Source: Candidatus Iainarchaeum sp. (GTDB lineage: Archaea; Iainarchaeota; Iainarchaeia; Iainarchaeales; DTGL01). Taken from it: a DNA stretch of 40,442 bases. The DNA lies in assembly GCA_043809265.1 (NCBI GenBank), contig JAZDDY010000120.1, positions 1 to 40,442 of the forward strand, written 5' to 3'. How positions within the stretch are numbered: the first letter of the stretch is position 1; each line of letters begins with the position of its first letter. Position numbers and translations under genes: made by a program. The notes under the pieces are model-generated. The model made no database searches and was not told where the DNA came from. It worked only from the letters and a program-made list of their open reading frames with translations. Of this stretch, positions 4,839-32,588 are shown piece by piece.

Positions 4839-7800
4839 ATGGGACCACAGAATATACAACGCACTTCGCAGATTTTGCTACTCCTCGCTTTAGCCACTGC
4901 ATTCCTGCCCGCATACTGTTTTGCCCAACTCTGCACAGGCGGCCTTGGAATTACCGGCGCACAGGACTGCATCGGCACTAATACTGTCCCGTGCCATAAC
5001 TGCGATTCAAGCGACATGGATTTTGAAATAAGGGCTCCGGATGACACAAACACCACCGGCTGGGTGAACGAAACCTATTCAGGCGCTGTCGGCACATGCC
5101 CTTCTGCCTGTTCAGAGGAAACCTGGCTCAACAGTTACGGCTACACTTTCTGCCATGCCGAAGGCGCATACGATGCGCGCACAAGGTCTTATTCGCAGGA
5201 CGGCGGCACATATGACTGGGAAACAAGCGACTGGAATATTGGAGTATACACAGTAAACTGGGATGCCTTGCAGAACTGGTGCACCTGCAAGACAGGCTCA
5301 AGCGCAAACTGGTTTAGCACTGTTTCAGGCGGCTCGAACGGCCAGTGCTGCGGAGACGATGCAGCAAGCGACGACTTTTACTATTACACCGCCAGCCCGA
5401 CAACAGCTTCAACGCTTGACTGCACTCGCTGCTCCAACGGAACAAAAGCAGGCCCGACAACGCTTTACGGCAACGGCAAATGGTCCGGCACAGACAAAAC
5501 CACAGACACAAGCGGCACCTGCTATTCTGGAGACATCACCTGCAATGACACCACAGCCTCAAATGGCACCTCTGGAACTTATTACGGCAACGGTTATTGG
5601 TCAGGCGCAAGCCCTCTCACAGACACAAGCGGCACATGCTATTACGGCGACATCACCTGCTCCGACGGTTCTGCAGCAAACGGCACTTCAGGCACCTATT
5701 ACGGGAACGGCTATACAACCGCAAACTCCACAACAGACAAGAACGGCTTGTGCCGTTATGGCGACATCACCTGCTCTAACGGTTCGGCTGCAAACGGCGC
5801 TTCAAACTACATATATGGAAACGGCTCGGCTTTCGGCACAACCTGCCATTACGGCGACTGGACCTGCGCAAACGGCTCGGACTCCAACGGCGCCTCCTGC
5901 ACGCTTGCCTGCAGCGGCTTAGGCACAGCCTGCTGCACAAGCCAGAGCAATTACAGGGACACAATCACATGCGCCGAATCAGGGTGCGGTCAAACAGACC
6001 ATGAAAGGGACACAGGGCAATCATATTGCACAGCAACAGCCAGCGGCTGCACAGCCTACATCTGGGATTCTTTGGGTTCAAAATGCTGCGGCGACGACGG
6101 TTCAGGGGATTCGTTTTGCACCACAGGCGGCGGTTCCTGCATGAGCGGAACATGGAATGCCAATCACTGCCTTGATGGAGTAAAAAACTGCACTGAGGTC
6201 GGCATTGACACAGGCGGAACAGACTGCAATCTTGCAGCAACAGACATGGCAGCGCCGACCACGACCAGCGATGCAAACACAGCATGGCAAACATCAAACC
6301 AGACAATAACCCTGACATGCAGCGATGGTTCCGCGGTTGGCGCCACAGGATGCCAGGCAACATATTATTGCATTGACGATTATAACACCTGCCTGCCTTC
6401 GATTGCCGGGACAACAGTGCAAGTGAACTGCGCATCGAATGACGTGAATAGGAAGTTTGTAAGGTTTTATTCATTGGACTACAATTCGAATGTCGAGGCC
6501 GTGAAAAGCGCTTACATAAGGATTGACAAGCAAAAGCCGAGCACAGACAACAATATCAGCACTTCATGGGTTGATGCGAACGTGCACGTGAAATTTTCCT
6601 GCACTGATTACAACGGTTCCGGCTGCTATCTCACCCAGTACAGGCAGGACACCAACCCAAGCAAGGAACTTACCTGGGGGGCATGGGCAACTTACACCGG
6701 CGCAATAATTTTCGGCTCAGATGGAAATTACGCTGTCGATTTCAATTCGAAAGACGCTGTCGGTAACATTGAGAGCACAATCAGGATGCTGGTGAAAATC
6801 GACAAGGGCATTGCCTTGATTTGGCCGATGGAAACATATTCTTACTATTCAACCTATGACGGCAATGTGATAGTGCAGTTCACGCAGGACGGCAACCACC
6901 AATTGGATTTCAATTCAAGGGATGTAGCAGGAAACGTTGAGCAGGTCAGGACTGTCTGGGTCGCAATCGACAAATCCCCGCCGGTTACAGTGGACGACTT
7001 GAATGCCGCATGGCATACTGTGAACTTTTCCGTTACGCTGACCTGCCGCGATGCCGCAAAACAGTGCACTTTGACAAAGTACAGGATTGACTCTGATGCG
7101 ACAAGCAGCGTTTCCATCGGGGCATGGAATACTTATTCCACGCCGATTTCAATTTCAACCGACGGCAACTGGGCAATAGACTATAATTCAACAGACTATG
7201 TGGGGTGGATTGAAGCCACACACACGATTTATGCGCTCTTGGACAAAAACGCGCCCACGACCACGGATGATGCGAACACCGCCTGGCGCAACAGCAATCT
7301 GGCTGTAACCCTTACCGCAACCGATTCCACTTCAGGAGTGAAGGACACGCTTTTCTGCCAAACAACAGGCTCCTGCACTCCGAGCGTTTCAGGCAACAAT
7401 TTCACTATTTCCTGCCCTTCAGAGGCAGTCTGCACAGAATATCTCTATTACAGGTCGATCGACATTGCCGGAAACCAGGAATCGATAAAAAATACCGGTG
7501 AAATAAAAATCGACAAGCAGTCTCCAATCGTCAGCGATGACGCCAATTCGGCCTGCCAGTTCTCTGATCAGACAGTGAATATAGAGAGCTATGACTGGAA
7601 CGGTTCAGGCATTTTAGGAACATATTATTGCGTTGACGACTCCAATTCCTGCGAGCCGAGCACAAGCGGCTCTTCGGCAAGCGTCACCTGCGATGCCAAT
7701 TCAACCTGCCAGAAATACGTGCGCTACAATGCAGTCGATTTGGCAGGCAACGCGTCCAGCATGCACGCACCCAAACTCATCATTGACAAGGGGGCCTCGA

Positions 7801-10463
7801 CAACAACAGACGACGCCAACACGCAATGGCAGGGCTCAAACCAAACAATTTTGCTGACTCCGAGTGACGGCGGTGGCTGCGGTGTTTCGGCAACATATTA
7901 TTGCATCGACACCTCAAACACGTGCACTCCCACGACAAACGGAACTTCAGTGAGCGTCGACTGCAATGCGAATTCAGTCTGCCAGAAGTATGTAAGGTAT
8001 TATTCCATTGACTCCGGAGGCAATACGGAAACAGTGAAATCCGTATTGATAAAAATCGACAGGCAGCCCCCCACAACACAGCACGATGCAAACACAGCAT
8101 GGCAGAATTCCAATCAAATAGTGCATTTCACTGTAAACGACAGCTCTGGCTGCGGCGGCGATTCAGCATATTATTGCCTTGATGACGCAAACACCTGCAG
8201 CCCCAACATTTTGAGCTCTTCAGCTGACGTCAACTGCGACACCAATTATGTCTGCCAGAAATACGTGCGCTTCAAGGGCGTCGACTATGCGGGCAACCAG
8301 GATGTGGTAAGGGCGGTTCTTATCAGGATTGACAAGAACGCGCCAATGACAGCAAGCGATATCAACACCGCATGGCGGTCAACAGACCACGTGATTTACC
8401 TTACAAGGCACGATACCGGCTCAGGGATACAGAACACCTGGTTCTGCACAGATTCAGACAACACCTGCACTCCCAACATTGCCGACACTTCCTTCACTGT
8501 TTATGCAATTGACGACCAGATATCAAGGCCTTATGTCAGGTATTATTCGAAAGACAACGTGAACAATGCCGAAGGAATCCACTCTGAAAGGGTGAGCATG
8601 GACAGGCAAAAGCCCACAACAACAGACGACTCCAACACCGCCTGGCAAAAGACCGATGTGACAGTGCACCTGTCGCCAAGCGACGGCTCCGGCTGCGGAG
8701 TTTATGCAACCTATTATTGCGTTGACACAGCCGGCACCTGCACTCCCACAACAAGCGGGACTTCGGCAAACGTCACCTGTGATGTGAATTCAGTTTGCCA
8801 GAAATATGTAAGGTATTATTCGGTTGACAATGTCAACAACACCGAAACCGTAAAAACATCGAATCTTGTGAAAATCGACAAAAACGCCCCATACACCACA
8901 GACAATGCGCCGAGCGCCTGGCAGGCACAGGACGTGAACGTAACGCTTTCCCCGAGCGACGGCTCAGGCTCAGGGGTTGCCTCAACAAAATACTGCGTTG
9001 ACACAGCAGGCACCTGCACTCCAACCTCAACATATGCCGCGCCAGTAAGCGTTACCTGCGCTTCAGATTCTATCTGCCAGCAATACGTGAGGTATTATTC
9101 AACAGACAATGCCGGCAACGCCGAACCGATAAGGACTTCGGTTTTGGTGAAAATCGACAAGCAGGCTCCGACCACAACAGATAACGCATCCCCGGACTGG
9201 CAGAGCGCGGATGTTAATGTAACCCTCACCCCAAGCGACGGCTCAGGCTCAGGAATTGCTGCAACCTATTATTGCATTGACGATGCCAATTCCTGCACTC
9301 CGGACACTTCTGGCACAACCGCAAGCGTCACCTGCCCGGCGAATTCCGTTTGCCAGAAGTATGTGAGGTATCGCTCAATCGACAATGTCGGCAACCAGGA
9401 AATAACAAAAGCCGCGCTTGTCAAAATAGAAAAGAGAGAGCCGCACACAAGCACAAACATAACCCAGACATGGTATGCCGGAGACTTTAACGTGGAACTT
9501 ACCTGCACGCCTGCCTCGCAATATACGACCTGCGTGCAGACAACCTACAGGCTCAACAGCGGTTCCTGGACAGTGTATTCGGCGCCATTCACGGTCACGG
9601 CAAGCGGAATCAACACAATAGACTTCAATTCAAGGGATTCGGCCGGAAACATCGAGGACATAAATACGGATTATGTGAGAATCGACCGCACCGCACCGAA
9701 CACCACAAACGACGCCAACACTCTGTGGAAGAGCACAGACCTCCAGTTCACGCTTTCCCCGACGGATTCCCAGAGCGGCGTCTCCGCAACCTATTATTGC
9801 ATCGACACCGCAAACACATGCACTCCCACGACAAGCGGGACTTCTGTCAGCGTCACCTGCGATGTGAATCAGAACTGCCAGAAATACGTCCGCTACTATT
9901 CAAAGGACGCAATGGACAACACCGAAAGCGTGAAGAATGTTTTGGTGCGCATCGACAAAAGATACCCCTATACTTTGGCCGAAGCGCCTTCAGGCTGCGT
10001 GAACCTTGACTTCAATATATTGCTGACATGCATTGACGAAAGCGGTTCCGGAAGGTGCATGATACAATACAAGTGGGGCGAAGAGCAATGGCTCAGCTCA
10101 GGCACGCTGACCGCAACAGAGTCGTTCACCTGGTGGGATATGAACTGGGGGCGCAGGAAGAAAATCGTGTTCAACAACGCAGGCCAGAGCGCGAAAAACG
10201 ATTATTCCATATTATTGAGGCTGAATTCCGGCAACTTCCACTTCTTTGAAACACAATCAGACGGCAGGGATTTGCGCTTCATTGACGACGACAATTCAAC
10301 ACAGCTGGATTATTTCATTGACACTTTCAGCCGCTCTCAGCAGGACGCGGTAATATGGGTGAAAGTCCCGCAAATCAATGCAGGCTCAACAACAGACCAT
10401 ATCTGGATGTATTATTCGAATTCCAGGGCGGACGCAAACCAGAGCGCGAACTGGTACGGCTGA
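4839..10463 (+). CDS. Giant secreted surface protein (1874 aa): Cys-rich head, about 13 Ig-like repeats of about 90 aa, C-terminal DUF2341-like domain
   Basis: Signal peptide (ILLLLALATAFLPAYCFA); two CCGDD motifs; repeated IDKxxPTTTDDxN...YYCxD..TCTP...CQKYVRYYSxDxxGN units; terminal WW..W.RRKKI...DGRDLRF...IWVKVP...MYY. Confidence 0.88.
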   Translation: MGPQNIQRTSQILLLLALATAFLPAYCFAQLCTGGLGITGAQDCIGTNTVPCHNCDSSDMDFEIRAPDDTNTTGWVNETYSGAVGTCPSACSEETWLNSYGYTFCHAEGAYDARTRSYSQDGGTYDWETSDWNIGVYTVNWDALQNWCTCKTGSSANWFSTVSGGSNGQCCGDDAASDDFYYYTASPTTASTLDCTRCSNGTKAGPTTLYGNGKWSGTDKTTDTSGTCYSGDITCNDTTASNGTSGTYYGNGYWSGASPLTDTSGTCYYGDITCSDGSAANGTSGTYYGNGYTTANSTTDKNGLCRYGDITCSNGSAANGASNYIYGNGSAFGTTCHYGDWTCANGSDSNGASCTLACSGLGTACCTSQSNYRDTITCAESGCGQTDHERDTGQSYCTATASGCTAYIWDSLGSKCCGDDGSGDSFCTTGGGSCMSGTWNANHCLDGVKNCTEVGIDTGGTDCNLAATDMAAPTTTSDANTAWQTSNQTITLTCSDGSAVGATGCQATYYCIDDYNTCLPSIAGTTVQVNCASNDVNRKFVRFYSLDYNSNVEAVKSAYIRIDKQKPSTDNNISTSWVDANVHVKFSCTDYNGSGCYLTQYRQDTNPSKELTWGAWATYTGAIIFGSDGNYAVDFNSKDAVGNIESTIRMLVKIDKGIALIWPMETYSYYSTYDGNVIVQFTQDGNHQLDFNSRDVAGNVEQVRTVWVAIDKSPPVTVDDLNAAWHTVNFSVTLTCRDAAKQCTLTKYRIDSDATSSVSIGAWNTYSTPISISTDGNWAIDYNSTDYVGWIEATHTIYALLDKNAPTTTDDANTAWRNSNLAVTLTATDSTSGVKDTLFCQTTGSCTPSVSGNNFTISCPSEAVCTEYLYYRSIDIAGNQESIKNTGEIKIDKQSPIVSDDANSACQFSDQTVNIESYDWNGSGILGTYYCVDDSNSCEPSTSGSSASVTCDANSTCQKYVRYNAVDLAGNASSMHAPKLIIDKGASTTTDDANTQWQGSNQTILLTPSDGGGCGVSATYYCIDTSNTCTPTTNGTSVSVDCNANSVCQKYVRYYSIDSGGNTETVKSVLIKIDRQPPTTQHDANTAWQNSNQIVHFTVNDSSGCGGDSAYYCLDDANTCSPNILSSSADVNCDTNYVCQKYVRFKGVDYAGNQDVVRAVLIRIDKNAPMTASDINTAWRSTDHVIYLTRHDTGSGIQNTWFCTDSDNTCTPNIADTSFTVYAIDDQISRPYVRYYSKDNVNNAEGIHSERVSMDRQKPTTTDDSNTAWQKTDVTVHLSPSDGSGCGVYATYYCVDTAGTCTPTTSGTSANVTCDVNSVCQKYVRYYSVDNVNNTETVKTSNLVKIDKNAPYTTDNAPSAWQAQDVNVTLSPSDGSGSGVASTKYCVDTAGTCTPTSTYAAPVSVTCASDSICQQYVRYYSTDNAGNAEPIRTSVLVKIDKQAPTTTDNASPDWQSADVNVTLTPSDGSGSGIAATYYCIDDANSCTPDTSGTTASVTCPANSVCQKYVRYRSIDNVGNQEITKAALVKIEKREPHTSTNITQTWYAGDFNVELTCTPASQYTTCVQTTYRLNSGSWTVYSAPFTVTASGINTIDFNSRDSAGNIEDINTDYVRIDRTAPNTTNDANTLWKSTDLQFTLSPTDSQSGVSATYYCIDTANTCTPTTSGTSVSVTCDVNQNCQKYVRYYSKDAMDNTESVKNVLVRIDKRYPYTLAEAPSGCVNLDFNILLTCIDESGSGRCMIQYKWGEEQWLSSGTLTATESFTWWDMNWGRRKKIVFNNAGQSAKNDYSILLRLNSGNFHFFETQSDGRDLRFIDDDNSTQLDYFIDTFSRSQQDAVIWVKVPQINAGSTTDHIWMYYSNSRADANQSANWYG
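5460..5900 (+). repeat. Four coding repeats of about 39 aa (YYGNG...GTCYYGDITCSxGxAxNG)
   Basis: Visible in the translation and as recurring ggcaacgg / ggcgacatcacctgc in the DNA. Confidence 0.85.
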
Positions 10464-10479
10464 ATTCGGCAGGAACAGG

Positions 10480-10506
10480 CAACGGAAAAGCATAAAAACA
10501 ATAAAA
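10480..10506 (+). repeat. 27-bp direct repeat, left copy (CAACGGAAAAGCATAAAAACAATAAAA)
   Basis: Identical to 11164-11190; the pair brackets the MNT-HEPN genes. Confidence 0.92.
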
Positions 10507-10536
10507 CAGCAAATGGTTCTATTGGGGTGGATTGAA

Positions 10537-10824
10537 TTGAACTTGAATTCAATTAGGAGAATTGCGGTTCCAATTCTGAAAAAAAACGGGGTAAGGAAAG
10601 CGGGCGTGTTCGGCTCGATTGCGAGAGGCGAAGCCAGGAAAGACAGCGACATTGACATTTTGATAGAGTTCAGCGGCAAAAAAAGCCTGTTTGACTTGGC
10701 CGGGCTTGAAATAGAATTGGAGAAAAAACTGAAAAAAAGGGTTGAATTGGTGGAATACTGTTCCATTCACCCGCTCCTAAAAGGCACTATTTTAGGCGAA
10801 GAGGTAAAACTCTATGAAAACTGA
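10537..10824 (+). CDS. mntA: Minimal nucleotidyltransferase (MNT) antitoxin
   Basis: GSIARGEARKDSDID = GSx10DxD. Start likely TTG 10537 after GGGGTG (ATG 10513 is an alternative). Overlaps the HEPN gene. Confidence 0.9.
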   Translation: MNLNSIRRIAVPILKKNGVRKAGVFGSIARGEARKDSDIDILIEFSGKKSLFDLAGLEIELEKKLKKRVELVEYCSIHPLLKGTILGEEVKLYEN

Positions 10825-11179
10825 TGGAATTTACCTGCAGCACATTCTGGAATCAACCTCGGACATAGAGCGATTTGTTGAAGGCGTTTCCAAAGAGGAA
10901 TTCATGGAATCAGCGGAGAAACAGGCTGCGGTGATAAGGAAACTGGAAATAATCGGGGAAGCCGTGAAAAACACCTCAAACTGCATCAGAAACAGGCATC
11001 CGGAAATCCCATGGGCCGAGATAGCGAGGACAAGAGACAAACTAATCCACGGCTATTTTGAAGTCAATGCTGAAAGAGTCTGGGTAATTGTCAAACGGGA
11101 TTTGCCGGGATTAAAAAAGAACATGGAAAAAATCCTGAAAAAAGAAGAATCCAGCGAAAAACACAACGGAAAAGCATAA
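10814..11179 (+). CDS. hepT: HEPN (DUF86) RNase toxin
   Basis: YLQHILES...LEIIGEAVK...IPWAEIARTRDKLIHGYF (Rx4HxY motif). Confidence 0.92.
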   Translation: MKTDGIYLQHILESTSDIERFVEGVSKEEFMESAEKQAAVIRKLEIIGEAVKNTSNCIRNRHPEIPWAEIARTRDKLIHGYFEVNAERVWVIVKRDLPGLKKNMEKILKKEESSEKHNGKA

Positions 11180-11190: not shown

Positions 11191-11214
11191 GTATATATTT
11201 AGTGAGGCTTTGGA

Positions 11215-12762: not shown

Positions 12763-13905
12763 ATGGATTTTTCTTTCAAGGCAATGGCTTTGCTTGGCGC
12801 TGTTTTGGGAATGGCGGTGGCGGTTTTACTGGTTTTACAGTTAAATGACGGTGGCCTTGCTCTGCTGCCAGGCACTCCAAAAGAAAGCGGGCAAGGGCTT
12901 TCCCCTACGCCGCTTCAAAAAATCGAATTGTTTGAATTAAAAGTGAAGGACTGCAACCAATGCGTTTCTTTTGATTTATTGAAACAGCAATTGATGGACT
13001 TGAACAAAGAATTTGATTACAGGGAAGCGCTTTTCGACAGCGCGGAAGGAAAACAATTGATTGAAAAATATGCGATTGAATTTGCACCAACCATTATTGT
13101 AAAGAATGCCCCGGCAAACCTTTTCGGCAACTGGAAAGATGTGGGTTCGGTTGAAGCGGACGGGGCAATGGTTTTCCGCTCTAAGGTTCCGGTTTACTGG
13201 GATTTGAAAGAGCAAAGGTTCGCAGGCCTTGTGAACGTGACAGAGATAACTGATTCGTCCTGCGGGAACTGCTTTAGCCAGCTGCAGTCAGGCGAATTGA
13301 GCCTGTTGCTGGCAAACATCAAGGTCTTGGAATCGAAAAAAGTCGATGTTGGCTCTACGGAAGGAAAGGAATTATTGAAAAAATACCATCTGGATTTTGT
13401 GCCTGCCGCGATTTTTTCGCCTGAAGTGGGGGATTACAATTTTTTCCAGCAGTTTGCTTCGTTCGGCTCTATTGAAAGCGACGGCTCGTTTGTTGTGAGA
13501 AAAAAATTCCCGCCATATAAAGGCCTTGATTCGAATGCTGTGAAAGGCCTGCTTTCAATAACCCTTATCGAATCACCGCAGTGCTGGGCCTGCAAGGACG
13601 CAAAAGACCTGCTGGCATTCCTGAATTCAAAGCTCGGGTTGAGGTTTGCGGATATAATAGTAATCGACGCAAACTCGGAAAGCGCGCGCTATCTGGCAGA
13701 ACAATATTCTGTGCAGTATGCGCCGGCAGCATTAATCCAGGGCGATTTGGCTCTTTTTGAGGGAATGGAGGAAACCTGGCCGAAAATCGGCCGCGTTTTC
13801 AAGGACGGGGTTTATGCTTTCGATAATCCGCTTTTGCTCGGGGAAGGCTATTATTATGACTTCAATTCAGGATTGATAGTTGCTGCAAGCGCTCAGCCGG
13901 CCTGA
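12763..13905 (+). CDS. Membrane-anchored protein with three thioredoxin-like CxxC domains
   Basis: N-terminal TM helix; CNQC, CGNC and CWAC, each followed by a cis-Pro-type motif (FAPT, FVPA, YAPA). Start at ATG 12763 after promoter-like GGAAAACCCTTTTAA. Confidence 0.75.
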   Translation: MDFSFKAMALLGAVLGMAVAVLLVLQLNDGGLALLPGTPKESGQGLSPTPLQKIELFELKVKDCNQCVSFDLLKQQLMDLNKEFDYREALFDSAEGKQLIEKYAIEFAPTIIVKNAPANLFGNWKDVGSVEADGAMVFRSKVPVYWDLKEQRFAGLVNVTEITDSSCGNCFSQLQSGELSLLLANIKVLESKKVDVGSTEGKELLKKYHLDFVPAAIFSPEVGDYNFFQQFASFGSIESDGSFVVRKKFPPYKGLDSNAVKGLLSITLIESPQCWACKDAKDLLAFLNSKLGLRFADIIVIDANSESARYLAEQYSVQYAPAALIQGDLALFEGMEETWPKIGRVFKDGVYAFDNPLLLGEGYYYDFNSGLIVAASAQPA

Positions 13906-19581: not shown

Positions 19582-20442
19582 TTAAACCCCTGGCGCGAGT
19601 ATCGATGTCGCCAGGAGGTATGCGGTCACGGATGTGCTCAATAGTATCAGGCAGTGCTTGAGGCCTGCTACAAGGCTGTTTTCCGAGATTTTCCCTATCA
19701 TCGGGCCTGCGAAAATGCTTTGCACTATCAGCAGGTTAAGGAAGTGGGCGGAAAAATCCATTTTCGGCTTGCTTTCGGAAGAACCGGCCTGCATTGATGA
19801 GATATCGCCGGAAAGCAGGCTGGCCGCATTGATTGCAGGCTGGTTTGCGATGAGCGGCACAAAGTAGACCTGGATTGCGATTATTATCATCACAAAGACA
19901 TAGAACATCATGTATGCGTTGAAAAGCGTGGACATTGTGCGGCTTTTCCTCTGGTTTTTCAGCCTTTCTATTTTTTCCACGTATTTTGCGCTTGTGGTGA
20001 AAACCTTCATGAAATTTCCCCCTGTGCGCAGGGTCTGGTTTATCACCGTGATTATTTTCCTTATAAGCTGGGAGCGGACGTCCTTGAAGGTGATTTGCAT
20101 TGCTTTTTCGAAAGGGATGCCGAGCTTCACTTTTGCGGCAAGCCTTTTCACGTAAACGCTCAAAGGCCCGTAATCGTTCCTTGCGGTTATCTGGAGGGCG
20201 TCGCTGATGTTCACGCCTGCCTGCAATAAGTCCCTGAGGTCGTCAAGCAAAACCCTGAAATTGTCCTCAAGGCCTTTTATTGCCCTGTTTTTGAGGTAAT
20301 AGGCCAGGACAAGCGGGCCTGCGAAGGCGATAATCGGCACAATGATAAGGCTTGTGCCGGCCAGCAGGAAAAACATGGCCAGGCTGGCGCCCGCGCCCAA
20401 AAGCGCGAATTTTGCGTAATAAAATAAAACCTCGTTTTCCAT
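19582..20442 (-). CDS. Type IV pilus/T2SS-F membrane platform protein (TadC/FlaJ-like)
   Basis: Multiple TM helices; DLLQAGVNISDAL, YGPLS, KLGIPFEKA, IGKISENSLVAGLKH. Confidence 0.9.
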   Translation of the reverse strand: MENEVLFYYAKFALLGAGASLAMFFLLAGTSLIIVPIIAFAGPLVLAYYLKNRAIKGLEDNFRVLLDDLRDLLQAGVNISDALQITARNDYGPLSVYVKRLAAKVKLGIPFEKAMQITFKDVRSQLIRKIITVINQTLRTGGNFMKVFTTSAKYVEKIERLKNQRKSRTMSTLFNAYMMFYVFVMIIIAIQVYFVPLIANQPAINAASLLSGDISSMQAGSSESKPKMDFSAHFLNLLIVQSIFAGPMIGKISENSLVAGLKHCLILLSTSVTAYLLATSILAPGV

Positions 20443-20480
20443 CTTTCCACTCTCTTTTTTCCTATTTTTTCAAAGCCCGC

Positions 20481-21356
20481 TTATTCCGGGGACATAATCA
20501 TCATTACTGCAATGAACAATATGTTTGCCAGCGGTATTACAAGCCACACACCGTAAGTCACCAGTTGTTCTGCCGAAAGCCCGAAAATGCCGGATTCGGT
20601 TGCAAACATCCCGAGGAGCATGACGGCAAAGAACAAAAACAACGGCGCTGCGATCAGGATGATGCTGTAAATTTCGCCAAGCGTTTCCGCCCTTTCAGCG
20701 CTCCTTTCCAATTGCAGCATGTACTCGAAGTATGCGTCGTCAGCGCGCTTTGACATGAATTCCTTGAGGTCGCCGCCGCTCCTCAATGTCGTGTTCAGCT
20801 CTTTCAGGAAGGTCTGCAGCTTCACCGACGGCGTCAGTTCTATTTCTTTTGCCACTGCCTTGCTGAAGGACAGGCCGAGCTGGTCCATGAAGCGCTGTAT
20901 TTTCATGCATTCTTTTTCAAGCCAGGGATAATCCGGATTGCCGGCAATGGACTGGAACATGTATTGGGGCGGCGCGCCGCCTTCGCTTATGGTGGACATT
21001 GTCAGGATTGCAAGCGGCAGGTTTGCCGCGATGATTTTGTTTTTTTTGGACAGTTCCATCGAAGGCCAGACAAAAGAGAATGCGGCGACTCCCGCCCCGG
21101 CGATAAAAGGCGCCAGGAACACAATGGGGCTTGCAAAGGTGCCTGAAACGAACACCGCTATGGCAACAACAAAGCCGAGTATTGCAGTGATGGCTGCAAG
21201 GGCGAGCCAGTAGGCGAAATAATGGCCTGTGCTGTAAGGGTAATCGACAAGCGCCAGCTTTTTTTTGAGCGAGTCAACGTCTATGTTTTTTGTGGCCTTG
21301 TAAAAGGTTTTTTCGGCCAGCCCGAAGACAAGCGCTTCAAGCCTTTCCTTCAGCAT
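20481..21356 (-). CDS. Type IV pilus/T2SS-F membrane platform protein (TadB/FlaJ-like)
   Basis: TM helices; NLPLAILTMSTISEGG, TPSVKLQTFL...TTLRSGGDLKEF. Confidence 0.9.
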   Translation of the reverse strand: MLKERLEALVFGLAEKTFYKATKNIDVDSLKKKLALVDYPYSTGHYFAYWLALAAITAILGFVVAIAVFVSGTFASPIVFLAPFIAGAGVAAFSFVWPSMELSKKNKIIAANLPLAILTMSTISEGGAPPQYMFQSIAGNPDYPWLEKECMKIQRFMDQLGLSFSKAVAKEIELTPSVKLQTFLKELNTTLRSGGDLKEFMSKRADDAYFEYMLQLERSAERAETLGEIYSIILIAAPLFLFFAVMLLGMFATESGIFGLSAEQLVTYGVWLVIPLANILFIAVMMIMSPE

Positions 21357-21386
21357 TCCTGCCCCTCCTCCGGCCTTCCTTGGCGG

Positions 21387-23648
21387 TCAGGCTTTTCCTT
21401 CAGCATTCTTGAATTCCTCCAGCCTTTTCGAGAATTCTGCGTAATCGGCAACATTGTCTTCCGTGATTTTTTTCATGAACGCCGTGCGCCTTTCGATTTT
21501 TTTCTGCAGGTCCAGGAGCGGAACGCCGTGCTCCTTGCTTATCTGCTTCAGCAAAAAGCTTCTTCCGGTTATCGGGAAGAATTCAGCAATGCTTTTTGTT
21601 TGGCCATCTATGGCCTTTATTTCCTCGAACTCGGTGTTTTCAAGCAGGTCGTTGTATTCGAGCCGCATTTCTTTCGCATTGTATTTTTTCACTTCCGCGA
21701 TTGTCCTTATCTTCCTTTTTACTTCCTGCTCGCCGATAAATCCGACATTGAGGATAACATCGACTGATTCGAGCAGCGAAGGGTAAAGGCTTATCGGGGG
21801 CGTTGTGAGCCTTGAGACAACATCATCAACCGACCTTGCGTGCAGTGTTGCCATGGAGCAGTGGCCTGAAGCCATGCCTTGGAACAATACGAATGTTTCC
21901 TTTCCCCTGACTTCACCGACTATGAGATAATCAGGCCTTTGCCTGAAGGATTCCATTATGAGCGTCATGAGGTCGACTTCGCCGAAGCGCTTTCCTGTCG
22001 CGTCCGGCGGGCCGAAACCCTGCCTTGCCACCTGCGGCAGCCAGTTTTCGTGCTTTATGTTCAGTTCCCTTGTGTCTTCGATTGATACAACGCGGTTCCC
22101 GTAAGGGATGAACATTGCGATAGCATTCAATATGGTTGTTTTTCCGCTTGCTGTCGGCCCAGTTATGAGAATTGATTTTTTGAATTCGATCACAGTCCAA
22201 AGGTATGCGGCAATCCTTGCGCTCATTGTGCCGTTCTTGATCAGCAGGCTTGGCGGCAGCGGCTTTTCAGGGAAAAGCCTGATGGTAAAACTGGGGCCTT
22301 TTGTGGAAACAGATTTTGTGAGCACGGCATTTATCCTTGAGCCGTCAGGCAGGACAGAGTCCACGAGCGGCGAGGCATAGGACACATAGGTTTTGGAGAG
22401 CTGGGCGAGCTTGATTATAAAATCCTCCAGCGTTTCCATGTTTTTGAAAACAATGTTTGTGGCGACATGGCCTTGCTTTTGGTGCACGACATATACGGGA
22501 ATGTCGGTGCCGTCGCATTCAATGTCCTCTATGAGCGGGTCGTGCATCAAAGGCTCTATCCTTTCAAGGCCCAGCAGGTCCCTTGAGAGATAGTACATGA
22601 GCTTGTGCCTTCCCTGACTTGAAAACGTGTAGCCGCGCTTTGAAATTATGCTTTCGACTTTTTCGAACATTTTTTCGCGGCTCAATTCCTCTATCGTTAT
22701 GACTTCGATGAGCTCGTTTTTTATTTTTGTGATTTTGTCCCTTTCCTCGTCGCTCAAGTCCGGTTCTATTATGTAATACACTTTTTGCCCCTGCGCCCTG
22801 GAAATGATTTTGCCGTAAGCATACCCAGGAATCAGGGTTATGAGGTCTTTTTCATTGCTTGCGATTTCCGATTTTTTGCCTTCGGCAAAAAGCGTTTCTT
22901 TCAGGGAAAGGATGGTTTCCGCGTGCTGGTCTTCCCCAGGCTCAACTTTCCTGAAATCCTCTGTTGTCGACTTTTCGGAAAGGCCTGAGCCTGTGGCAAA
23001 AATAGGGACCTTGAAGACTTCCTGTATTTTTTCTCCTGTCTGAATTCCTCTGCTGCCGAACATCTTCCGTATGGAGTCTGTTCTTTTTGCCATTGAAGAG
23101 ATTGTTTTTGCGATTCCGCTGCCGAATCCCGGCCCTTTTTTCGGCTTTTGGCCGGGTTCAAGCTGGCGCTCTTCAATTTCGCTTTTATCGGCTTTGCCTT
23201 CGACAAACAGCGACTTTATCTTGCTTACGGCGGACTGGCCGCCTTTCACAGGCCCCGGAGCGCCTGTACCGCCTGAAAATAATCCGGAAATTTTTGCTTT
23301 TTGCCCGCCGCCTTCCGCAAGCACTATAAAGCTGGTTTCAATTGAGAAATCCCTTGCAATCCTGCCGTAGGAATTGAATGCCTTCACAAATCCCTTCAAT
23401 GCCTTCCTTTCGATTTTTTCCCTTGAATCGAGCTTTTTTGCGGATATTTCCGCGGCAAGCCCCGCAGTCGGCTCCCAGCCAATCCCGTTTTTTTTCTGCA
23501 TTTCCTTCAATGCTGCCAGCATGGTTTTCGGCTTGAAGTCTTTGCTTGCGAGAATGCTTTCAAGGAGCAGGAGTTCTGAAAGGTGGTCCTTGAGCACGGA
23601 AAGCATTTCCTGCCATTCGCTGGCTTGTTCGCTGATTTCGGGAGTCAT
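21387..23648 (-). CDS. Type IV pilus assembly ATPase (FlaI/VirB11/CpaF family) with long N-terminal extension
   Basis: Walker A GPTASGKTT, SIEDTREL, RQRPDYLIVGEVRG, GHCSMATLHA. Confidence 0.95.
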   Translation of the reverse strand: MTPEISEQASEWQEMLSVLKDHLSELLLLESILASKDFKPKTMLAALKEMQKKNGIGWEPTAGLAAEISAKKLDSREKIERKALKGFVKAFNSYGRIARDFSIETSFIVLAEGGGQKAKISGLFSGGTGAPGPVKGGQSAVSKIKSLFVEGKADKSEIEERQLEPGQKPKKGPGFGSGIAKTISSMAKRTDSIRKMFGSRGIQTGEKIQEVFKVPIFATGSGLSEKSTTEDFRKVEPGEDQHAETILSLKETLFAEGKKSEIASNEKDLITLIPGYAYGKIISRAQGQKVYYIIEPDLSDEERDKITKIKNELIEVITIEELSREKMFEKVESIISKRGYTFSSQGRHKLMYYLSRDLLGLERIEPLMHDPLIEDIECDGTDIPVYVVHQKQGHVATNIVFKNMETLEDFIIKLAQLSKTYVSYASPLVDSVLPDGSRINAVLTKSVSTKGPSFTIRLFPEKPLPPSLLIKNGTMSARIAAYLWTVIEFKKSILITGPTASGKTTILNAIAMFIPYGNRVVSIEDTRELNIKHENWLPQVARQGFGPPDATGKRFGEVDLMTLIMESFRQRPDYLIVGEVRGKETFVLFQGMASGHCSMATLHARSVDDVVSRLTTPPISLYPSLLESVDVILNVGFIGEQEVKRKIRTIAEVKKYNAKEMRLEYNDLLENTEFEEIKAIDGQTKSIAEFFPITGRSFLLKQISKEHGVPLLDLQKKIERRTAFMKKITEDNVADYAEFSKRLEEFKNAEGKA

Positions 23649-28600: not shown

Positions 28601-28957
28601 GTTGGTGTCAAGGTTGATTGTGTCATTTGCCTCGGCCTGGTTTGAGTTCACATCCTGAACTTTCAGGTACACTGTTTTAATGCCGTCGCCCGAAGTGCAG
28701 CCTGCGCCTGTGTTCAGGTTGAAGGAATAGGTCGCGGCATAATCTGCCCAGCCGTAATAGGTGGAATTGTCGCATGAAAAGTTCATCCTGTTGCCGTCTG
28801 ACGCCGAAATATACAACACCACTTGCGCGGAATTCGTGTCGGCTTCATCCTTTTGGATATTGAAGTCGGCGATTGAAACCGCCGCAAAGGCACCCTGCAA
28901 AGCCGCAAGCACCAAAATTGCCAGTGCAACCCAAAGCCGGCTTTTTTCCATTCCCAT
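25676..28957 (-). CDS. Large membrane-anchored surface protein (1093 aa) with FN3/Ig-like domains
   Basis: Signal peptide; FN3-like LNASWSTPSDTGGSG...YYYAIKAVDGAGN; helical stalk; C-terminal TM plus basic tail (PLLLIIFAGLGAYLYWRLKRL). Confidence 0.88.
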   Translation of the reverse strand: MGMEKSRLWVALAILVLAALQGAFAAVSIADFNIQKDEADTNSAQVVLYISASDGNRMNFSCDNSTYYGWADYAATYSFNLNTGAGCTSGDGIKTVYLKVQDVNSNQAEANDTINLDTNGPTIGYVWHDANASDGNSMLNGSKSLIIRVSGEKDANTFASIGTISDLNLYDDGSHNDIDSNDGVYGASFSVAAFGKSASCMAYVVGKQVDKVGNISTKNSFTQLCIDLNAPTYSSENPKNYVNRRKPDINVRLLDAESGVKQGSILLWVGGAPVPDANMTKTPVSTGYLVSYTPDSNLSGTTVNVSVYFDDNAGNHSDLNWAFTIDENAPSAVSDLNVAIVAGDNDLNASWSTPSDTGGSGLSHFILYRYTQAITASNISSATTVSSGISGASRNYVDAMSTASEDITYYYAIKAVDGAGNSSAVSNSAGATVPDFNAPTDLNFYMPWYTNSGYPDINITGTDVSSARLSCNDSNYSGSFSSFPIKTFSILIGNGCTNADGNRTVYAWVFDNHDNNVKIQHSVYVDRSAPSVPSITDINHADGNNSLKWSASTDAGGGISHYKVYYGAGSGITTADAYATEYDTNFSQEVSGRSRYCYRVQAADLAGNLSDLGEEACLASDANAPAIIVSLAGYKYRGNIKYFSSGGHEIKVTGDYSLKSAYCKITYGDGNTSEFALSGPGSTLSGTILFMAIDGNAVMRVDATDSLDLNASEEISFAIDSTPPDINSLEVKQKSEAVIEITAKVSPDAERLELLNCHGGKCSPLAEFSAADLNKGTAKIDWNIAGLSLNEANIVARASDDLNNASEKSAAIMLFSAIGEKIKSIDSMQSAIDAAIAVLGDFLVEPGAGIIAKAKEAKEHLANAKNALEQGDIAAVQGEITSAARLLSEIELERPSISVKSSQVTDYAADRDSFETALSGFVSGQALGESKSLWESLAFRREIMSIEVKKGEATELQVLIVLSVKNTGSTASRQFNVVEFVPKQIGEKASLLSSNTLFEIASEDPVVSFFIAELRPGEEKTIKYKPKKAFTQEEISAIEAGAAGSFKIPVPLPSGYDTSSVSFSGTQGGIPVPLLLIIFAGLGAYLYWRLKRL

Positions 28958-29047
28958 CTATATGAGTATTGTTTCCCACTTTAAAAACTTTATTAATATA
29001 TATAAGGGGGCAAAACAGGGCCATTTAAGGCGCAAGCCCAAAAGCGC

Positions 29048-29455
29048 CTATTGCGTTGGTTCAGAAGCCTCTTCGGCAACTGCAGTTATCCTCTGCCTGA
29101 ACCACTCAATGGAATAAAAGCCAGTGAATTTTTCGTTTCCGAGGATAAAGCAGGGCACTTCTCCTGCGCCGATATTGTTCTGCTCCATTTTTCCGGGCTC
29201 GGCCTCGATGTTCACGATTGTGATTTTTGCGATTCCCGCAAGGCTTTCATCCTCGCCCACCGCGCGCAGGGTTTCCTGCAGTTTAGCGGAATCCCTGTCA
29301 AAAGTTTTGAGGAATGCCACGACCTTTATTTCCCTTTTTCTCTCTACTTGTTCCCCCTGGAATGCGGTCTGCAGCGCCGGGAGGACGAAAAAGTAGGCTA
29401 AGAGCAGCGCGATTACTGCGACAGTGATTTTCCCGATAGGGGTGAGTTTTGCCAT
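29048..29455 (-). CDS. Membrane-anchored thioredoxin-fold protein lacking CxxC
   Basis: N-terminal TM; VVAF...ITIVNIE...NNI...VPCFILGNEKFTG fits a thioredoxin fold, but the active-site CxxC is absent. Confidence 0.6.
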   Translation of the reverse strand: MAKLTPIGKITVAVIALLLAYFFVLPALQTAFQGEQVERKREIKVVAFLKTFDRDSAKLQETLRAVGEDESLAGIAKITIVNIEAEPGKMEQNNIGAGEVPCFILGNEKFTGFYSIEWFRQRITAVAEEASEPTQ

Positions 29456-29468
29456 AAAAACCTTTTTT

Positions 29469-29909
29469 TCAGCTGCAATCCGTTGTTTTGTCAGAAATGT
29501 CCTTGCAGTCCCTCGAAGTGACCTTTACCTCTGCCGGGCTTTCGCCGGCGGCAAGCCGCACGTAAACATTCCCGTAAGCGCCTTCCTCAAGGTTTACCTG
29601 GCAGATGTTGGTGTCGGAATTGCCGCTGCTGTGCTTTGCGGTGACAGTGAATGCATTCAGGTCAAGATAGCCGGTATTCTCGAGCTGGATCGTGGCAACG
29701 TTTGTGTCGCCCTGGTCGAAAGAGCATGACACGATTGTAAAGCCGGCATCCGAGCACCTTATCTGCTCATCAGACATCCTTTGCTGGTTTGCGAGCTCGT
29801 TGTTGTAATAAGTGTACATCCAGGAAAAAAACAATCCGCCTATGCCCAACGCCACAAGCACCAAAAGCATTGTCGCAATAAGCGGGCTCACGCCCTTCTG
29901 CATTCCCAT
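29469..29909 (-). CDS. Archaeal type IV pilin
   Basis: QKG|VSPLIATMLLVLVALGIG; LENTG motif. Confidence 0.9.
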   Translation of the reverse strand: MGMQKGVSPLIATMLLVLVALGIGGLFFSWMYTYYNNELANQQRMSDEQIRCSDAGFTIVSCSFDQGDTNVATIQLENTGYLDLNAFTVTAKHSSGNSDTNICQVNLEEGAYGNVYVRLAAGESPAEVKVTSRDCKDISDKTTDCS

Positions 29910-29987
29910 AATTTCACTTCCCGATAAGCAGAATAGAATAGCGTTTAACTTCTTTAAATATCTTTCTGTATTGTGCGGCTTTTCCCA

Positions 29988-30029
29988 ATAATAAAAAATA
30001 AAAATAGAAGAAGGGCAGAAGCCCTTCTT
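29988..30029 (-). terminator. Hairpin plus T-tract terminator after the probable major pilin
   Basis: Stem AAGAAGGGC (30008-30016) / GCCCTTCTT (30021-30029) with a 4-nt loop, followed on the minus strand by CTATTTTTATTTTTTATT. Confidence 0.7.
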
Positions 30030-30047
30030 TTTGGAAAATTATTTGCT

Positions 30048-30515
30048 TTAACCTGTTTCAATCTGATTCTTGAGGATGTTGGTTTTTACGCCGCACTCGA
30101 CGGATTCGATTGTAATCCCATCCGGCTTTGTCCCGCCTGTGCCGACTCCGCCCTTTGTCCAAGCGATTTTCTGGCCGCCGTCCTCAATATTGAGGGTGAC
30201 ATTGTTAAGGTCGGAGTTTCCGTCAGAGTAAATTGCGGTTATCTTGAAAGCGTTCAGGTCTATGGTGCTGCCGTTCTTCAAAACAAATCTGGTGGCATAC
30301 TGTGCGCTGTACCAGGTCGGTTTGATGTTTGTCAGGTCGACTGTCAGGGTTGCACCCGAGCACCCTGTCATTTTGGTTGCGGTCTTGTCGCTTTCTGTCT
30401 GCACATTCGACTGGAATCCGGTCACCCACTGCCAGATTATGACTCCGACAGCCATGCACACAAGCAAAAGCAAAACTGTTGCGATTAACGGACTAACACC
30501 TTTTTGATTTTTCAT
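30048..30515 (-). CDS. Archaeal type IV pilin (probable major pilin)
   Basis: MKNQKG|VSPLIATVLLLLV; ATG 30515 preceded by AGGTGA RBS; own TATA-like TTATATAG (about 30562-30570) and terminator. Confidence 0.9.
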   Translation of the reverse strand: MKNQKGVSPLIATVLLLLVCMAVGVIIWQWVTGFQSNVQTESDKTATKMTGCSGATLTVDLTNIKPTWYSAQYATRFVLKNGSTIDLNAFKITAIYSDGNSDLNNVTLNIEDGGQKIAWTKGGVGTGGTKPDGITIESVECGVKTNILKNQIETG

Positions 30516-30680
30516 AGAGCATATCACCTTTGGAATTAACACATACATTACGGATTAAGTCCTATATAATGCTTTCTTTTCCGTTCTCCATACCCTGAAA
30601 GCCCTTTTTACAGTTTTTTTTTTGCCTGTCGCGCACCCCAGACGGAATGTTTTTATTGAAATAATGCGTTATTGAATTGA

Positions 30681-32588
30681 ATGAAAGCGCGCTTTTTGCT
30701 TTTGGCACCGGCCCTTGCACTTGTTTTTGCAACAGCCCTGGCTGCAGCCCCCTCGACCACGCTTAACCAGCCCAACGGCAATCAGGTTATCGGGAGCGTT
30801 TACAGCGTTGATTTCAATGCGAGCGATGCCGACAACGCCGACCTTAGTGCTGCCCTGTATTATTCTTCAACCGCCGGGGATTTCAATAATTTCATCGCCG
30901 ACTTGAACCTCAACGATTATTCGAATTACACAGGCCTTTCCTGCGGCAGCACTGTCTTCCTCACTACCACAAACTGCACTTATGATTGGAACCTTTACAG
31001 GCCGGGAGTTTCAACAAAAGACGCAAACCTTGTGCTTTACATGCCCTTGGACACCTATTCGTTCCGCGATTTTTCGCCACTGGCAAACAATGGTTCGGCC
31101 ACAACCTTTGACAAGACCTCTTCAAGCGGGGTTGTTGCAGGCAAAATCAACCGTGCAATGAAATTCGACGGAGTGGACGATTACATAAGTGTCACAGACA
31201 CCGACAGGCTTGACCTGCAGGCCAATGATTTTACGATTGAATTATGGGCCGCGCGTTCTGCCACAGACGCAATCCATGTGCTTGTAGACAAAAGGCCTGA
31301 TGCATCAAACGGCTATGTGCTGCAGTTCAATGATTCGAATCAGGTTGAAGCGCAGATATGCAATGGAACCTGCACCACAATAACCTCGGCAAGCACTGTA
31401 ACAGACACAGGATGGCATTATATCGCAATAGAATTCGACAGGAGCGCAAATGCCCAATTATATATTGACGGGAGCGCAGACGGCTCGGCAACAAGCATTT
31501 CCTCAAAATCGGCCGGTATCAATACCGCGGCAAATCTCCGCATCGGGGCGCGCTCTTATGATTCGCTGGCAAATGTAATGAACGGCTCAATCGACGAGGT
31601 GCGCGTTTACGACAAATTGCTCGGCGCTGCGGAAATCAAGAAGCGCTATTCAATGGTGCAGGGCACTGACCTTAACAGGATTGCCGATGGAAATTATTTC
31701 CTGGACCTGAATGTCTGGGACCAGACTGATGCGAATGCAACCGATTCCAGCAACACGAGTTTTGCAGTGGATAACAATGCCCCAAGCACGACAGACAATG
31801 CGCCCTCCGCAACCCAGAGCTCGGCTTTCACTGTAACGCTTTCCTGCGATGACACGTCCTATATTTCAGGCATCCAGGCAAGCGGGTGCTCTTACTCGGA
31901 ATACAGGATTGATTCGGGTTCATGGAAGCAGTCGAGCGCGATTGCGGTAAACGACGACGGCAATCACAAAATAGAATATTATTCGGTTGACGCAGCCGGC
32001 AATGCCGGCACAATAAGGACAACCTATGCTTCCCTGCTCCTTACCGGGCATTCCTTCAATTTCGGCCTGAGGTTCGACGGTAATTGGTGGGACGGCAGCG
32101 TGCACATTCCGGGCTTTGTTGTCGACCAGAACATGCAAAATACTGTTTCGCAGACTTTAACGCAGGGCTCGACTTTCGATTATGCGTCTTTCTCGCGCAA
32201 CGGCCTTGCAATAGGCCTTGTCAGCACAGGTGCCACCTATTTGATGGACATAACCAACGTGTATTCCTCGACTTTCAATATTTATTTGCAGCAGGCCCAC
32301 AGGGCAGGTGTTGATAAAGAATTCTATCTTGCCTACACTTCAGGCAATTATACTGCTTTCGAGGACAAAAAGGCGTATGTGAGGAACGGCGAGTTTTTGA
32401 AACGCGTGAATCCTGCCTTTGGCATTGCAACCACTGCAATTTACACAATCACCCTCGGCCTTGACTATTTTGACAGCAATGTGGACATCAACGGCTCATT
32501 CCATCTCGGCCCTGGCTCGCATTCCCTTTTGATAACAAACCAGGGCACGTCCAACGGAAAAGTGGTCATAGGCATTGAAAAGAACTGA
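30681..32588 (+). CDS. Secreted LamG/concanavalin-like domain surface protein
   Basis: Signal peptide; GKINRAMKFDGVDDYI, FTIELW, WHYIA, LYIDG, GSIDEVRVY; one Ig-like repeat. Confidence 0.88.
   Translation: MKARFLLLAPALALVFATALAAAPSTTLNQPNGNQVIGSVYSVDFNASDADNADLSAALYYSSTAGDFNNFIADLNLNDYSNYTGLSCGSTVFLTTTNCTYDWNLYRPGVSTKDANLVLYMPLDTYSFRDFSPLANNGSATTFDKTSSSGVVAGKINRAMKFDGVDDYISVTDTDRLDLQANDFTIELWAARSATDAIHVLVDKRPDASNGYVLQFNDSNQVEAQICNGTCTTITSASTVTDTGWHYIAIEFDRSANAQLYIDGSADGSATSISSKSAGINTAANLRIGARSYDSLANVMNGSIDEVRVYDKLLGAAEIKKRYSMVQGTDLNRIADGNYFLDLNVWDQTDANATDSSNTSFAVDNNAPSTTDNAPSATQSSAFTVTLSCDDTSYISGIQASGCSYSEYRIDSGSWKQSSAIAVNDDGNHKIEYYSVDAAGNAGTIRTTYASLLLTGHSFNFGLRFDGNWWDGSVHIPGFVVDQNMQNTVSQTLTQGSTFDYASFSRNGLAIGLVSTGATYLMDITNVYSSTFNIYLQQAHRAGVDKEFYLAYTSGNYTAFEDKKAYVRNGEFLKRVNPAFGIATTAIYTITLGLDYFDSNVDINGSFHLGPGSHSLLITNQGTSNGKVVIGIEKN

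Follow-up and report, generated by a model that had tools for sequence, protein, structure and literature searches.

The window analyzed here, by which we mean the whole 40.4-kb stretch of DNA (40,442 nucleotides), is contig C120 of an assembly of 1.23 Mb (149 contigs, GC content 0.49, 86% complete). Its Rad50 has 92% identity with the Rad50 of a MAG named Candidatus Iainarchaeum, which identifies the source organism as a relative of the latter, in the DPANN phylum Iainarchaeota. Between positions 4839 and 32588 the window carries an archaeal type IV pilus locus, with a T2SSE ATPase, two T2SSF proteins and pilins with class III signal peptides, flanked by genes for surface proteins of the DUF2341, Big_3_3/OmpL47-like, Laminin_G_3, C1q-like and thioredoxin-like types and followed by NurA, HerA and Rad50 (Table 1). 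The subject of this study is the tripeptide D-x-N (Asp, any residue, Asn), which recurs in the exported proteins of the locus and which a first-pass annotation of the sequence had proposed as a new modification sequon.

In the 1093-aa surface protein (aa, amino acids), 36 of the 75 Asn residues lie within D-x-N, with every site falling between residues 31 and 803 at a density of about one per 22 residues, and the small pilin-like proteins have two to five sites apiece. As regards the cytoplasmic proteins, the motif includes 0 of 17 Asn in HerA, 0 of 7 in NurA, 0 of 18 in the pilus ATPase and 1 of 25 in Rad50. The hand counts made in the first-pass annotation were right within one or two, the thioredoxin-like protein having six sites where four had been reported. 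Taken together, the 20 open reading frames (ORFs) of the window classed as exported by hydropathy hold 174 D-x-N for 39.2 ± 5.9 expected, a number reached in 0 of 2000 shuffles.

Table 1. Features of the window, with D-x-N counts observed and, where calculated, expected from composition
Feature	Position	Strand	D-x-N observed	D-x-N expected	Remarks
Three radical SAM genes in a row	1106-3846	-			Pfam PF04055; no D-x-N excess
Exported giant protein, 1874 aa	4839-10463	+	50	12.0	Tandem OmpL47/Big-like domains, C-terminal DUF2341 (Pfam)
HepT-like ribonuclease	10378-11179	+			PF01934, 1.4e-28
Exported protein, 419 aa	11215-12474	+	4		C1q-like head (Pfam)
Membrane-anchored thioredoxin/glutaredoxin-like protein	12763-13905	+	6	0.9	Pfam
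Membrane protein, 94 aa	13893-14177	-	3	0.4	Without Pfam family
Exported protein, 277 aa	14310-15143	+	2		N-terminal part common to the 419-aa protein
Exported giant protein, 1399 aa	15339-19538	+	39	7.5	Big_3_3 domain
Type IV pilus machinery	19582-23648	-	0		Two T2SSF membrane proteins and T2SSE ATPase; internal controls
Pilin-like/minor-pilin protein, 250 aa	23962-24714	-	5		
Pilin-like/minor-pilin protein, 182 aa	24711-25259	-	2		
Pilin-like/minor-pilin protein, 132 aa	25256-25654	-	3		
Surface protein, 1093 aa	25676-28957	-	36	5.1	Beta-sandwich (FN3/Ig-like), C-terminal anchor
Archaeal type IV pilin, 146 aa	29469-29909	-	3		Class III signal peptide
Archaeal type IV pilin, 166 aa	30048-30548	-	3		Class III signal peptide
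Exported Laminin_G_3 (LamG) protein, 635 aa	30681-32588	+	16	4.4	Pfam
NurA, HerA, 479-aa protein, Rad50	32651-39977		1 in total		Cytoplasmic controls

For the source genome, 1229 genes were called with a simple codon-usage ORF picker. Hydropathy assigned 306 of their products to the exported class, 651 to the cytoplasmic class and 131 to the multi-pass class, the other 141 being different or partial. The rule for "exported" is crude and requires a hydrophobic stretch at the N terminus with no more than one membrane segment after it; expected counts were obtained from shuffles that preserve the composition of each protein. The exported proteins contain 580 D-x-N for 239.7 ± 13.9 expected (observed-to-expected ratio [O/E], 2.42; z 24.5), and the cytoplasmic ones contain 238 for 263.5 ± 13.5 (O/E 0.90). 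The claimed enrichment in exported proteins is thus stronger than had been stated, and it survives composition-matched shuffling, which had been named beforehand as a possible refutation, whereas the description of the motif as nearly absent from cytoplasmic proteins was overstated, their count lying only about 10% under expectation. Asp occupies the -2 position of 13.1% of exported Asn and of 3.9% of cytoplasmic Asn. When residue pairs with gaps of 0 to 4 and an expectation of at least 15 were ranked, D-x-N was the strongest outlier of the exported set (z 21.9, with T-x-T next at 12.3); in the cytoplasmic set it fell outside the top 25 pairs, which are led by C-x-x-C. Further pairs enriched in exported proteins are T-x-T, P-x-x-x-P, YY, TP and C-x-x-x-x-C.

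Such an excess could be an artefact of repeated domains, paralogues, composition, crude gene calling or DNA-level bias, in particular because giant repeat proteins make the five largest contributions and because both genes and export classes derive from simple scripts. However, composition is controlled by the per-protein shuffles, and no length class of the exported proteins lacks the excess (O/E 2.89, 2.14, 2.11, 1.57 and 2.93). The 230 exported proteins without a paralogue (BLAST E<1e-4) still contain 229 D-x-N for 103.2 expected (O/E 2.22), with the motif again at rank 1; length classes and singletons together rule out a repeat or paralogue origin, as the first-pass annotation had argued for repeat expansion. 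A DNA-level bias is ruled out by the frame specificity of the pattern GAYNNNAAY, which occurs 580, 12 and 168 times in the three codon frames of exported genes and 238, 22 and 224 times in those of cytoplasmic genes, being enriched in frame 0 only. Regarding the classification, the exported class of the window wrongly takes in the ATPase, HerA and Rad50, and misplaced cytoplasmic proteins of this kind dilute the effect rather than produce it. Moreover, five related genomes, described below, give an O/E near 1.0 with the same pipeline. We consider the artefact explanation largely refuted already, and highly improbable.

The enrichment is specific to the order, spacing and identity of the two residues. 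In the exported set, the related pairs are near chance (O/E for E-x-N, 0.81; N-x-D, 0.89; D-x-D, 0.90; N-x-N, 0.84; D-x-x-N, 1.13; DN, 0.87), and so are further patterns (D-x-Q, 1.02; D-x-[ST], 1.09; S-x-N, 0.94; T-x-N, 1.05). The canonical sequon, N-[not P]-[ST], is not overrepresented in these proteins (658 for 621.3 expected; O/E 1.06, z 1.6), and its O/E is 0.98 when no Asp or Glu stands at -2. D-x-N followed by Ser or Thr at +2 with a non-Pro residue between (98 for 36.0, O/E 2.72) and D-x-N lacking the +2 Ser/Thr in the same setting (464 for 194.5, O/E 2.39) are both in excess; Ser/Thr at +2 is therefore not needed for the enrichment. With Pro at the middle position, the motif is at chance level in the source genome (D-P-N, 12 for 10.0), and D-[not P]-N reaches an O/E of 2.48. 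No longer consensus was found around D-x-N.

Ca2+ binding had been mentioned in the first-pass annotation as an alternative. It predicts co-enrichment of D-x-D, N-x-D and D-x-N-x-D, none of which is seen in the exported set, the last occurring 21 times for 14.9 expected (z 1.6); D-x-D-x-[DN]-G is found 8 times for 2.7 expected, too few to account for about 340 excess D-x-N. A Ca2+ motif was thus rejected for the bulk of the sites. The D-x-N at inter-domain linkers of Ig-like domains (I-D-x-N-A-P) do resemble the cadherin-type D-x-N-D-N motif, but the acidic residues that accompany the latter, and those of DxDxDG motifs, are absent.

The same pipeline was applied to 100 to 240 kb from each of 18 relatives and to G048 (100 kb) and G041 (~43 kb), which represent other orders of the class, the latter genome being uninformative with only four exported proteins. 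Over these 21 genomes, source genome included, the exported O/E ranges from 0.74 to 3.42, and D-x-N holds rank 1 of about 1300 to 1600 pairs in nine of them. In decreasing order, the values are 3.42 in G046, 3.01 in G031, 2.88 in G112, 2.47 in G007, 2.42 in the source genome, 2.37 in G034, 2.11 in G055, 1.89 in G013, 1.81 in G048, 1.71 in G025, 1.48 in G022, 1.43 in G014, 1.41 in G124, 1.31 in both G027 and G120, 1.18 in G028, 1.05 in G032, 0.89 in G040, 0.85 in G037 and 0.74 in G078. When pooled, the nine rich genomes show 1340 D-x-N for 554.0 expected in exported proteins and 471 for 553.6 in cytoplasmic ones. The five poorest genomes (O/E 0.74 to 1.18), which belong to the same order as the source genome, show 112 for 111.1 in exported proteins; with this baseline of 1.0 in close relatives, the trait is lineage specific.

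The compartment was further examined in 190 multi-pass membrane proteins of the nine rich genomes, oriented by the positive-inside (Lys/Arg) rule alone. Their outside segments contain 103 D-x-N for 40.9 ± 6.0 expected (z 10.4) and their inside segments 27 for 28.0, while the outside segments of ten poorer genomes contain 18 for 15.0. The outside excess is located in long outside domains.

Homologous proteins allowed us to compare the motif with its counterparts elsewhere. Orthologues of the 1093-aa protein have an O/E of 3.7 to 7.4 throughout the family, and several other families reach 2.3 to 6.2. The excess over chance in exported proteins of the source archaeon and many relatives is two- to sevenfold. 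The homologues of the 1093-aa protein in G025, G031, G015, G030 and G040 have values of 0.3 to 1.1. The Big/OmpL47 part of the 1399-aa protein was also searched against a collection of 5.8 billion proteins. Among the 120 homologues listed, 24 are rich (O/E at least 2.4), namely records labelled Diapherotrites or unnamed plus single records of Baldrarchaeia, Micrarchaeota and Deltaproteobacteria, and 81 have an O/E of at most 1.2 (median of 0.67 for ranks 14 to 120), including proteins of Paenibacillus, Neobacillus, Thermoleophilia and Actinobacteria. An equally strong signal in homologous surface proteins of other organisms, which the first-pass annotation had regarded as a possible refutation, was thus not seen. 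Four rich homologues (P0014, P0015, P0107 and P0114; O/E 3.4 to 5.8) are labelled Deltaproteobacteria, Baldrarchaeia, Micrarchaeota or unnamed; either the rich records under those labels are misbinned contigs or the trait extends past Iainarchaeota.

In BLAST alignments with the 81 poor homologues, the Asn of D-x-N faces Thr in 19%, Ser in 11%, a gap in 10% and an Asn in only 9% of cases, whereas other Asn are matched by Asn in 31%. The pair most commonly aligned to D-x-N is D-x-T, and the bacterial adhesin-domain homologues are enriched in D-x-T. Since the poor homologues do without Asn at this position, the fold does not require it; the lineage has placed an Asn two residues after a pre-existing Asp.

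Within the rich family, seven orthologues of the 1093-aa protein hold 26 to 37 sites each. The sites in common with the window protein fall from 34 of 36 at 78% identity to 21 of 36 at 38 to 39% and 11 of 36 at 29%, yet the total is retained, with 32 sites at 38 to 39% identity and 36 at 29%. At 38 to 39% identity, conservation is 26 of 36 for the Asn of D-x-N, compared with 15 to 16 of 34 for other Asn, 16 to 18 of 36 for the middle residue and ~40% for the average residue. The sites are thus constrained and at the same time turn over at a steady density. Glycosylation sequons show turnover of positions with constant density; the pattern is compatible with sequons and no proof of them alone. 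The original observation is confirmed and extended: D-x-N constitutes a three-residue signature under selection, specific both to the extracytoplasmic compartment and to the lineage.

The candidate enzyme for such a signature is the oligosaccharyltransferase AglB, of the STT3 family, which has a match in 115 of the 121 genomes of the phylum. In the source genome, a single STT3-family match exceeds the cut-off (PF02516; C96:8660-9688; 55.5 bits for a cut-off of 24.5). Its gene (G000:C96:8348-9739) ends at the contig edge after 464 residues, before the WW-x-x-G motif and the C-terminal domain, and no WWxxG-type AglB motif was found elsewhere in the 86%-complete assembly; the fragment contains TVGEE. 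With HMMER, full-length AglBs from relatives align with AfAglB-L and with STT3A over the W-W-D-Y-G-H segment. In the profile alignment, T-V-G-E corresponds to the TIAE catalytic motif of AfAglB. The catalytic Glu is present without exception (52 of 52 AglBs), as is the first Asp motif in 49 of 52; the invariance of this Glu suggests that the enzymes are active. The family profile scores 114 bits against eukaryotic STT3A and 29 bits against PglB.

Passages of PMC7226087 describe the Asp of WWD and two Trp as hydrogen bonding the hydroxyl of the +2 Ser/Thr, and a section of PMC4287180 states that all AglBs have WWDYG. In the Iainarchaeota, this motif is degenerate, with WWDYG in only 10 of the 55 AglBs having the segment. 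The Asp is kept and the Tyr changed in 24 (17 WWDEG, 3 WWDQG and 1 each of WWDKG, WWDVG, WWDSG and WWDNG), and the Asp is replaced in 21 (8 WWSYG, 3 WWGSG, 4 WWNQG, 2 WWNEG and 1 each of WWNDG, WWGEG, WWELG and WWGLG). All 10 AglBs of the window family belong to the last set, reading WWSYG or WWGSG. The three WWDYG genomes that were scored have an O/E of 0.74, 1.05 and 1.43 (G023, G095, G099, G105 and G110, also WWDYG, lie outside the O/E sample), and every genome above 1.7 has a noncanonical motif. In G048 (loci L215-L221), AglB reads WWGLG and the 21 exported proteins contain 20 D-x-N for 11.0 expected; a degenerate AglB motif and a mild D-x-N excess may therefore predate the order.

A second element of interest is the conserved stretch [ST]-[VI]-G-E-E-x-x-G-x-x-[FW]-x-x-K-[YF] (alignment A1, loci L035-L211), in which a Lys lies 11 residues past the catalytic Glu in 51 of 52 AglBs. 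In PglB, according to passages of PMC7226087, R331 lies 12 residues past E319 and forms a salt bridge with the -2 Asp, and yeast has D362 12 residues past E350. By analogy, this Lys is a candidate for reading the -2 Asp and a possible counterpart of Arg331.

The residue at +2 also behaves differently with the type of AglB. In genomes keeping WWD, Ser/Thr at +2 is overrepresented at D-x-N relative to other Asn (pooled odds ratio, 1.62; p 4e-6), whereas in the WWS/WWG family it hardly adds anything (stratum odds ratios of 1.14, 0.75 and 1.07). In G014 (WWDYG) and G027 (WWDNG), the D-x-N excess is modest and consists almost entirely of D-x-N-x-S/T, with an O/E of 2.44 compared to 1.25 in the former and of 2.39 compared to 1.15 in the latter. 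This distribution suggests how a three-residue sequon could have evolved from one of five residues like that of bacteria.

On these grounds we infer that the Asn itself is modified, and it is possible to hypothesize the following mechanism. D-x-N would be a short acceptor motif selected in the extracytoplasmic protein parts of many Iainarchaeota; their single membrane oligosaccharyltransferase, AglB, would attach a glycan to its Asn, holding the substrate mainly via the -2 Asp, as PglB does with Arg331, rather than via the +2 Ser/Thr; and pili, adhesins and other surface proteins would thereby be densely coated with glycans. That D-x-N is an N-glycosylation sequon anchored by its -2 Asp, with the divergent AglB as the enzyme, is the likeliest of the readings considered and a proposal to which we give an even chance. 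The fuller claim is more tentative and in our judgment falls slightly below that level: the AglB of Iainarchaeota would have been retuned to the -2 Asp with a dispensable +2 hydroxyl, giving the first Ser/Thr-free N-glycosylation sequon in any domain of life, convergent with the bacterial -2 rule and coating pili and giant adhesins at one site per 20 to 25 residues.

Several observations weigh against this proposal, and the first of them concern AglB. Genomes with WWDEG or WWDQG are among the richest (G046, G112 and G034), and chance values are found in others that read WWDEG, WWDQG or WWDKG (G037, G028 and G040); since genomes that keep WWD can be as rich in D-x-N, loss of the Asp is not the cause of the trait. 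The altered pocket that the first-pass annotation had suggested looking for is present in the window family, but it does not separate rich from poor genomes. The Lys at +11 is found in D-x-N-poor genomes too, and neither a column scan nor a motif comparison identified an AglB residue that predicts D-x-N richness. Two determinants were tried and rejected: the third and fourth residues of WW-x-x-G do not predict richness, and the best alignment column (Lys/Arg in eight of eight rich genomes and in two of nine others) was dropped after it failed on held-out genomes, as the rich G001, G004, G006, G008, G009, G012 and G016 carry Glu, Asn or Ser there. AglB type therefore tracks the trait only loosely. 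The difference in +2 Ser/Thr between AglB types is itself modest when compared directly (p 0.04) and is confounded by relatedness. Furthermore, D-x-N-P is enriched in the source genome (17 for 9.6 expected, for example in I-D-K-N-P-P linkers), which tells against glycosylation because known oligosaccharyltransferases exclude Pro at +1, as stated in a portion of PMC8342417. Outside loops of at most 80 residues, finally, show no excess (9 for 9.4 expected), a result that can be counted against the proposal or judged neutral.

The remaining objections come from the structural setting, and they are what recommends the main rival, according to which D-x-N is a structural device. Located on the exposed face of beta-sandwich domains outside the cell, it would either cap the start of a strand or act as a weak pair binding metal or water, and some lineages of Iainarchaeota would have taken it up for extracellular stability. 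The 1093-aa protein was modelled with AlphaFold2 from six sequences, with a mean pLDDT of 66, as a chain of beta-sandwich domains that continues into a helical stalk, one more beta domain and the anchor. Of the 36 sites, 23 fall in 10-residue blocks with a mean pLDDT of at least 60, and most of these are modelled at the entry from a loop into a strand, where the Asp lies in the loop and the Asn is the first or second residue of the strand; D-G-N hairpins account for six of the 36, and midstrand sites are few. The flanking residues show the same habit, being hydrophobic as alternating strand positions would be. Pooled over the nine rich genomes, the middle position favours Phe, Trp, Leu, Val, Met and Gly (Phe 4.9-fold, Leu 3.9-fold and Val 3.6-fold) and disfavours Asp, Arg, Lys and Pro, and the residue after Asn favours Val, Ile and Ala (Val 4.0-fold and Ile 3.7-fold) and disfavours Asp and Glu; such neighbors would put Asp and Asn on the same, presumably exposed, face. 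Some sites are part of conserved domain features, namely the inter-domain linker I-D-x-N-A/P-P and D-x-N-S-x-D-x-x-G-N. A structural role would also agree with the tolerance of D-x-N-P, with the better conservation of the sites compared to the average residue and with the lack of excess in short membrane loops.

However, the fold is attained without D-x-N by homologous domains of bacteria and of five genomes from the same order, where Thr, Ser or other residues stand in place of the Asn. A metal site predicts enrichment of D-x-D, N-x-D and D-x-N-x-D, contrary to the values given above, and for an Asx turn or cap N-x-N, D-x-D, D-x-S and D-x-T should be equally suitable. The excess is also present in unrelated small proteins without paralogues, and density is upheld while positions turn over. 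The loop-to-strand habit of the model would fit a glycosite and a structural cap alike. On balance, we consider the structural explanation rather unlikely. As for the interpretation advanced in the first-pass annotation as a whole, it is supported in part: the enrichment stands, and the inspection of AglB that it suggested revealed an altered motif, while the excess of D-x-N-P and the recurring structural position count against it, and the modification of the Asn remains at the level of the inference made above.

A further possibility is that D-x-N is read outside the cytoplasm by something other than AglB, such as another enzyme that modifies Asn, a factor in surface assembly or anchoring, or a lectin-like receptor of a host or partner in episymbiosis. 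Compartment and lineage specificity would suit such a reader as well, no feature of AglB follows the trait, and besides AglB the source genome encodes another GT-C enzyme, of the PMT_2 family. Yet PMT-type enzymes are annotated in Pfam as O-mannosyltransferases acting on Ser/Thr and not on Asn, no candidate enzyme or receptor was identified, and the added effect of +2 Ser/Thr in genomes keeping WWD points to a classical oligosaccharyltransferase pocket. We regard a reader of this kind as improbable.

If N-glycosylation by AglB is taken as the preferred reading, D-x-N can be compared with the known systems. Like the D/E-X-N-X-S/T sequon of Campylobacter PglB, it has an acidic residue exactly at -2, occurs on extracytoplasmic proteins and does not favour Pro at the X(-1) position, and the putative reader Lys is nearly as far from the catalytic Glu as R331 (11 and 12 residues, the latter from passages of PMC7226087). 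Different from that sequon, Asp alone is enriched and Glu is not, there is no need for +2 Ser/Thr, Pro at +1 is tolerated, and the enzyme would be an archaeal AglB whose profile is nearer to eukaryotic STT3A by score. With canonical AglB and STT3 proteins, the enzymes of the Iainarchaeota share family membership, the Glu of T-V-G-E, the first acidic motif, the W-W-x-x-G-H framework and the architecture of a single-subunit membrane enzyme with its C-terminal domain outside; they differ in that N-X-S/T is not enriched in the exported proteins and that the Asp of WWD is Ser or Gly in the window family. An archaeal precedent for N-glycosylation independent of +2 Ser/Thr is Asn-2 of the Halobacterium salinarum S-layer protein, glycosylated even with the +2 Ser replaced, according to part of PMC2952790; unlike D-x-N, it is described there as one unexplained site, without a -2 Asp rule, a proteome signature or an altered AglB motif.

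To our knowledge, N-x-S/T is treated as the universal code of N-glycosylation and the WWD pocket as its universal reader. Our search of the literature, which covered articles without their supplementary files, found no description of a D-x-N sequon, of the specificity of AglB in DPANN archaea or of the AglB variation reported here. A phylum-wide selection signature for a different tripeptide, together with a decayed WWD pocket, offers a concrete and testable case of sequon evolution. If the glycosylation reading is true, the prediction of glycosites in uncultured archaea would change, the surface biology of DPANN episymbionts would be better explained, and an oligosaccharyltransferase with an orthogonal three-residue tag could become available for glyco-engineering. 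If the motif is structural instead, a three-residue signature separating exported from cytoplasmic proteins in one lineage would still be unusual and useful for annotation.

Some other features of the window deserve mention. The three radical SAM genes lie just upstream of the surface-protein block. The HepT-like gene separates the giant adhesin gene from the gene of the following surface protein; its 5' end is overlapped in part by a small ORF, and the two probably form a toxin-antitoxin pair. The 419-aa and 277-aa exported proteins are similar over their N-terminal ~160 residues and differ in their C-terminal heads, C1q-like in the former and Cys rich in the latter, so that on sequence grounds they look like interchangeable tip proteins.

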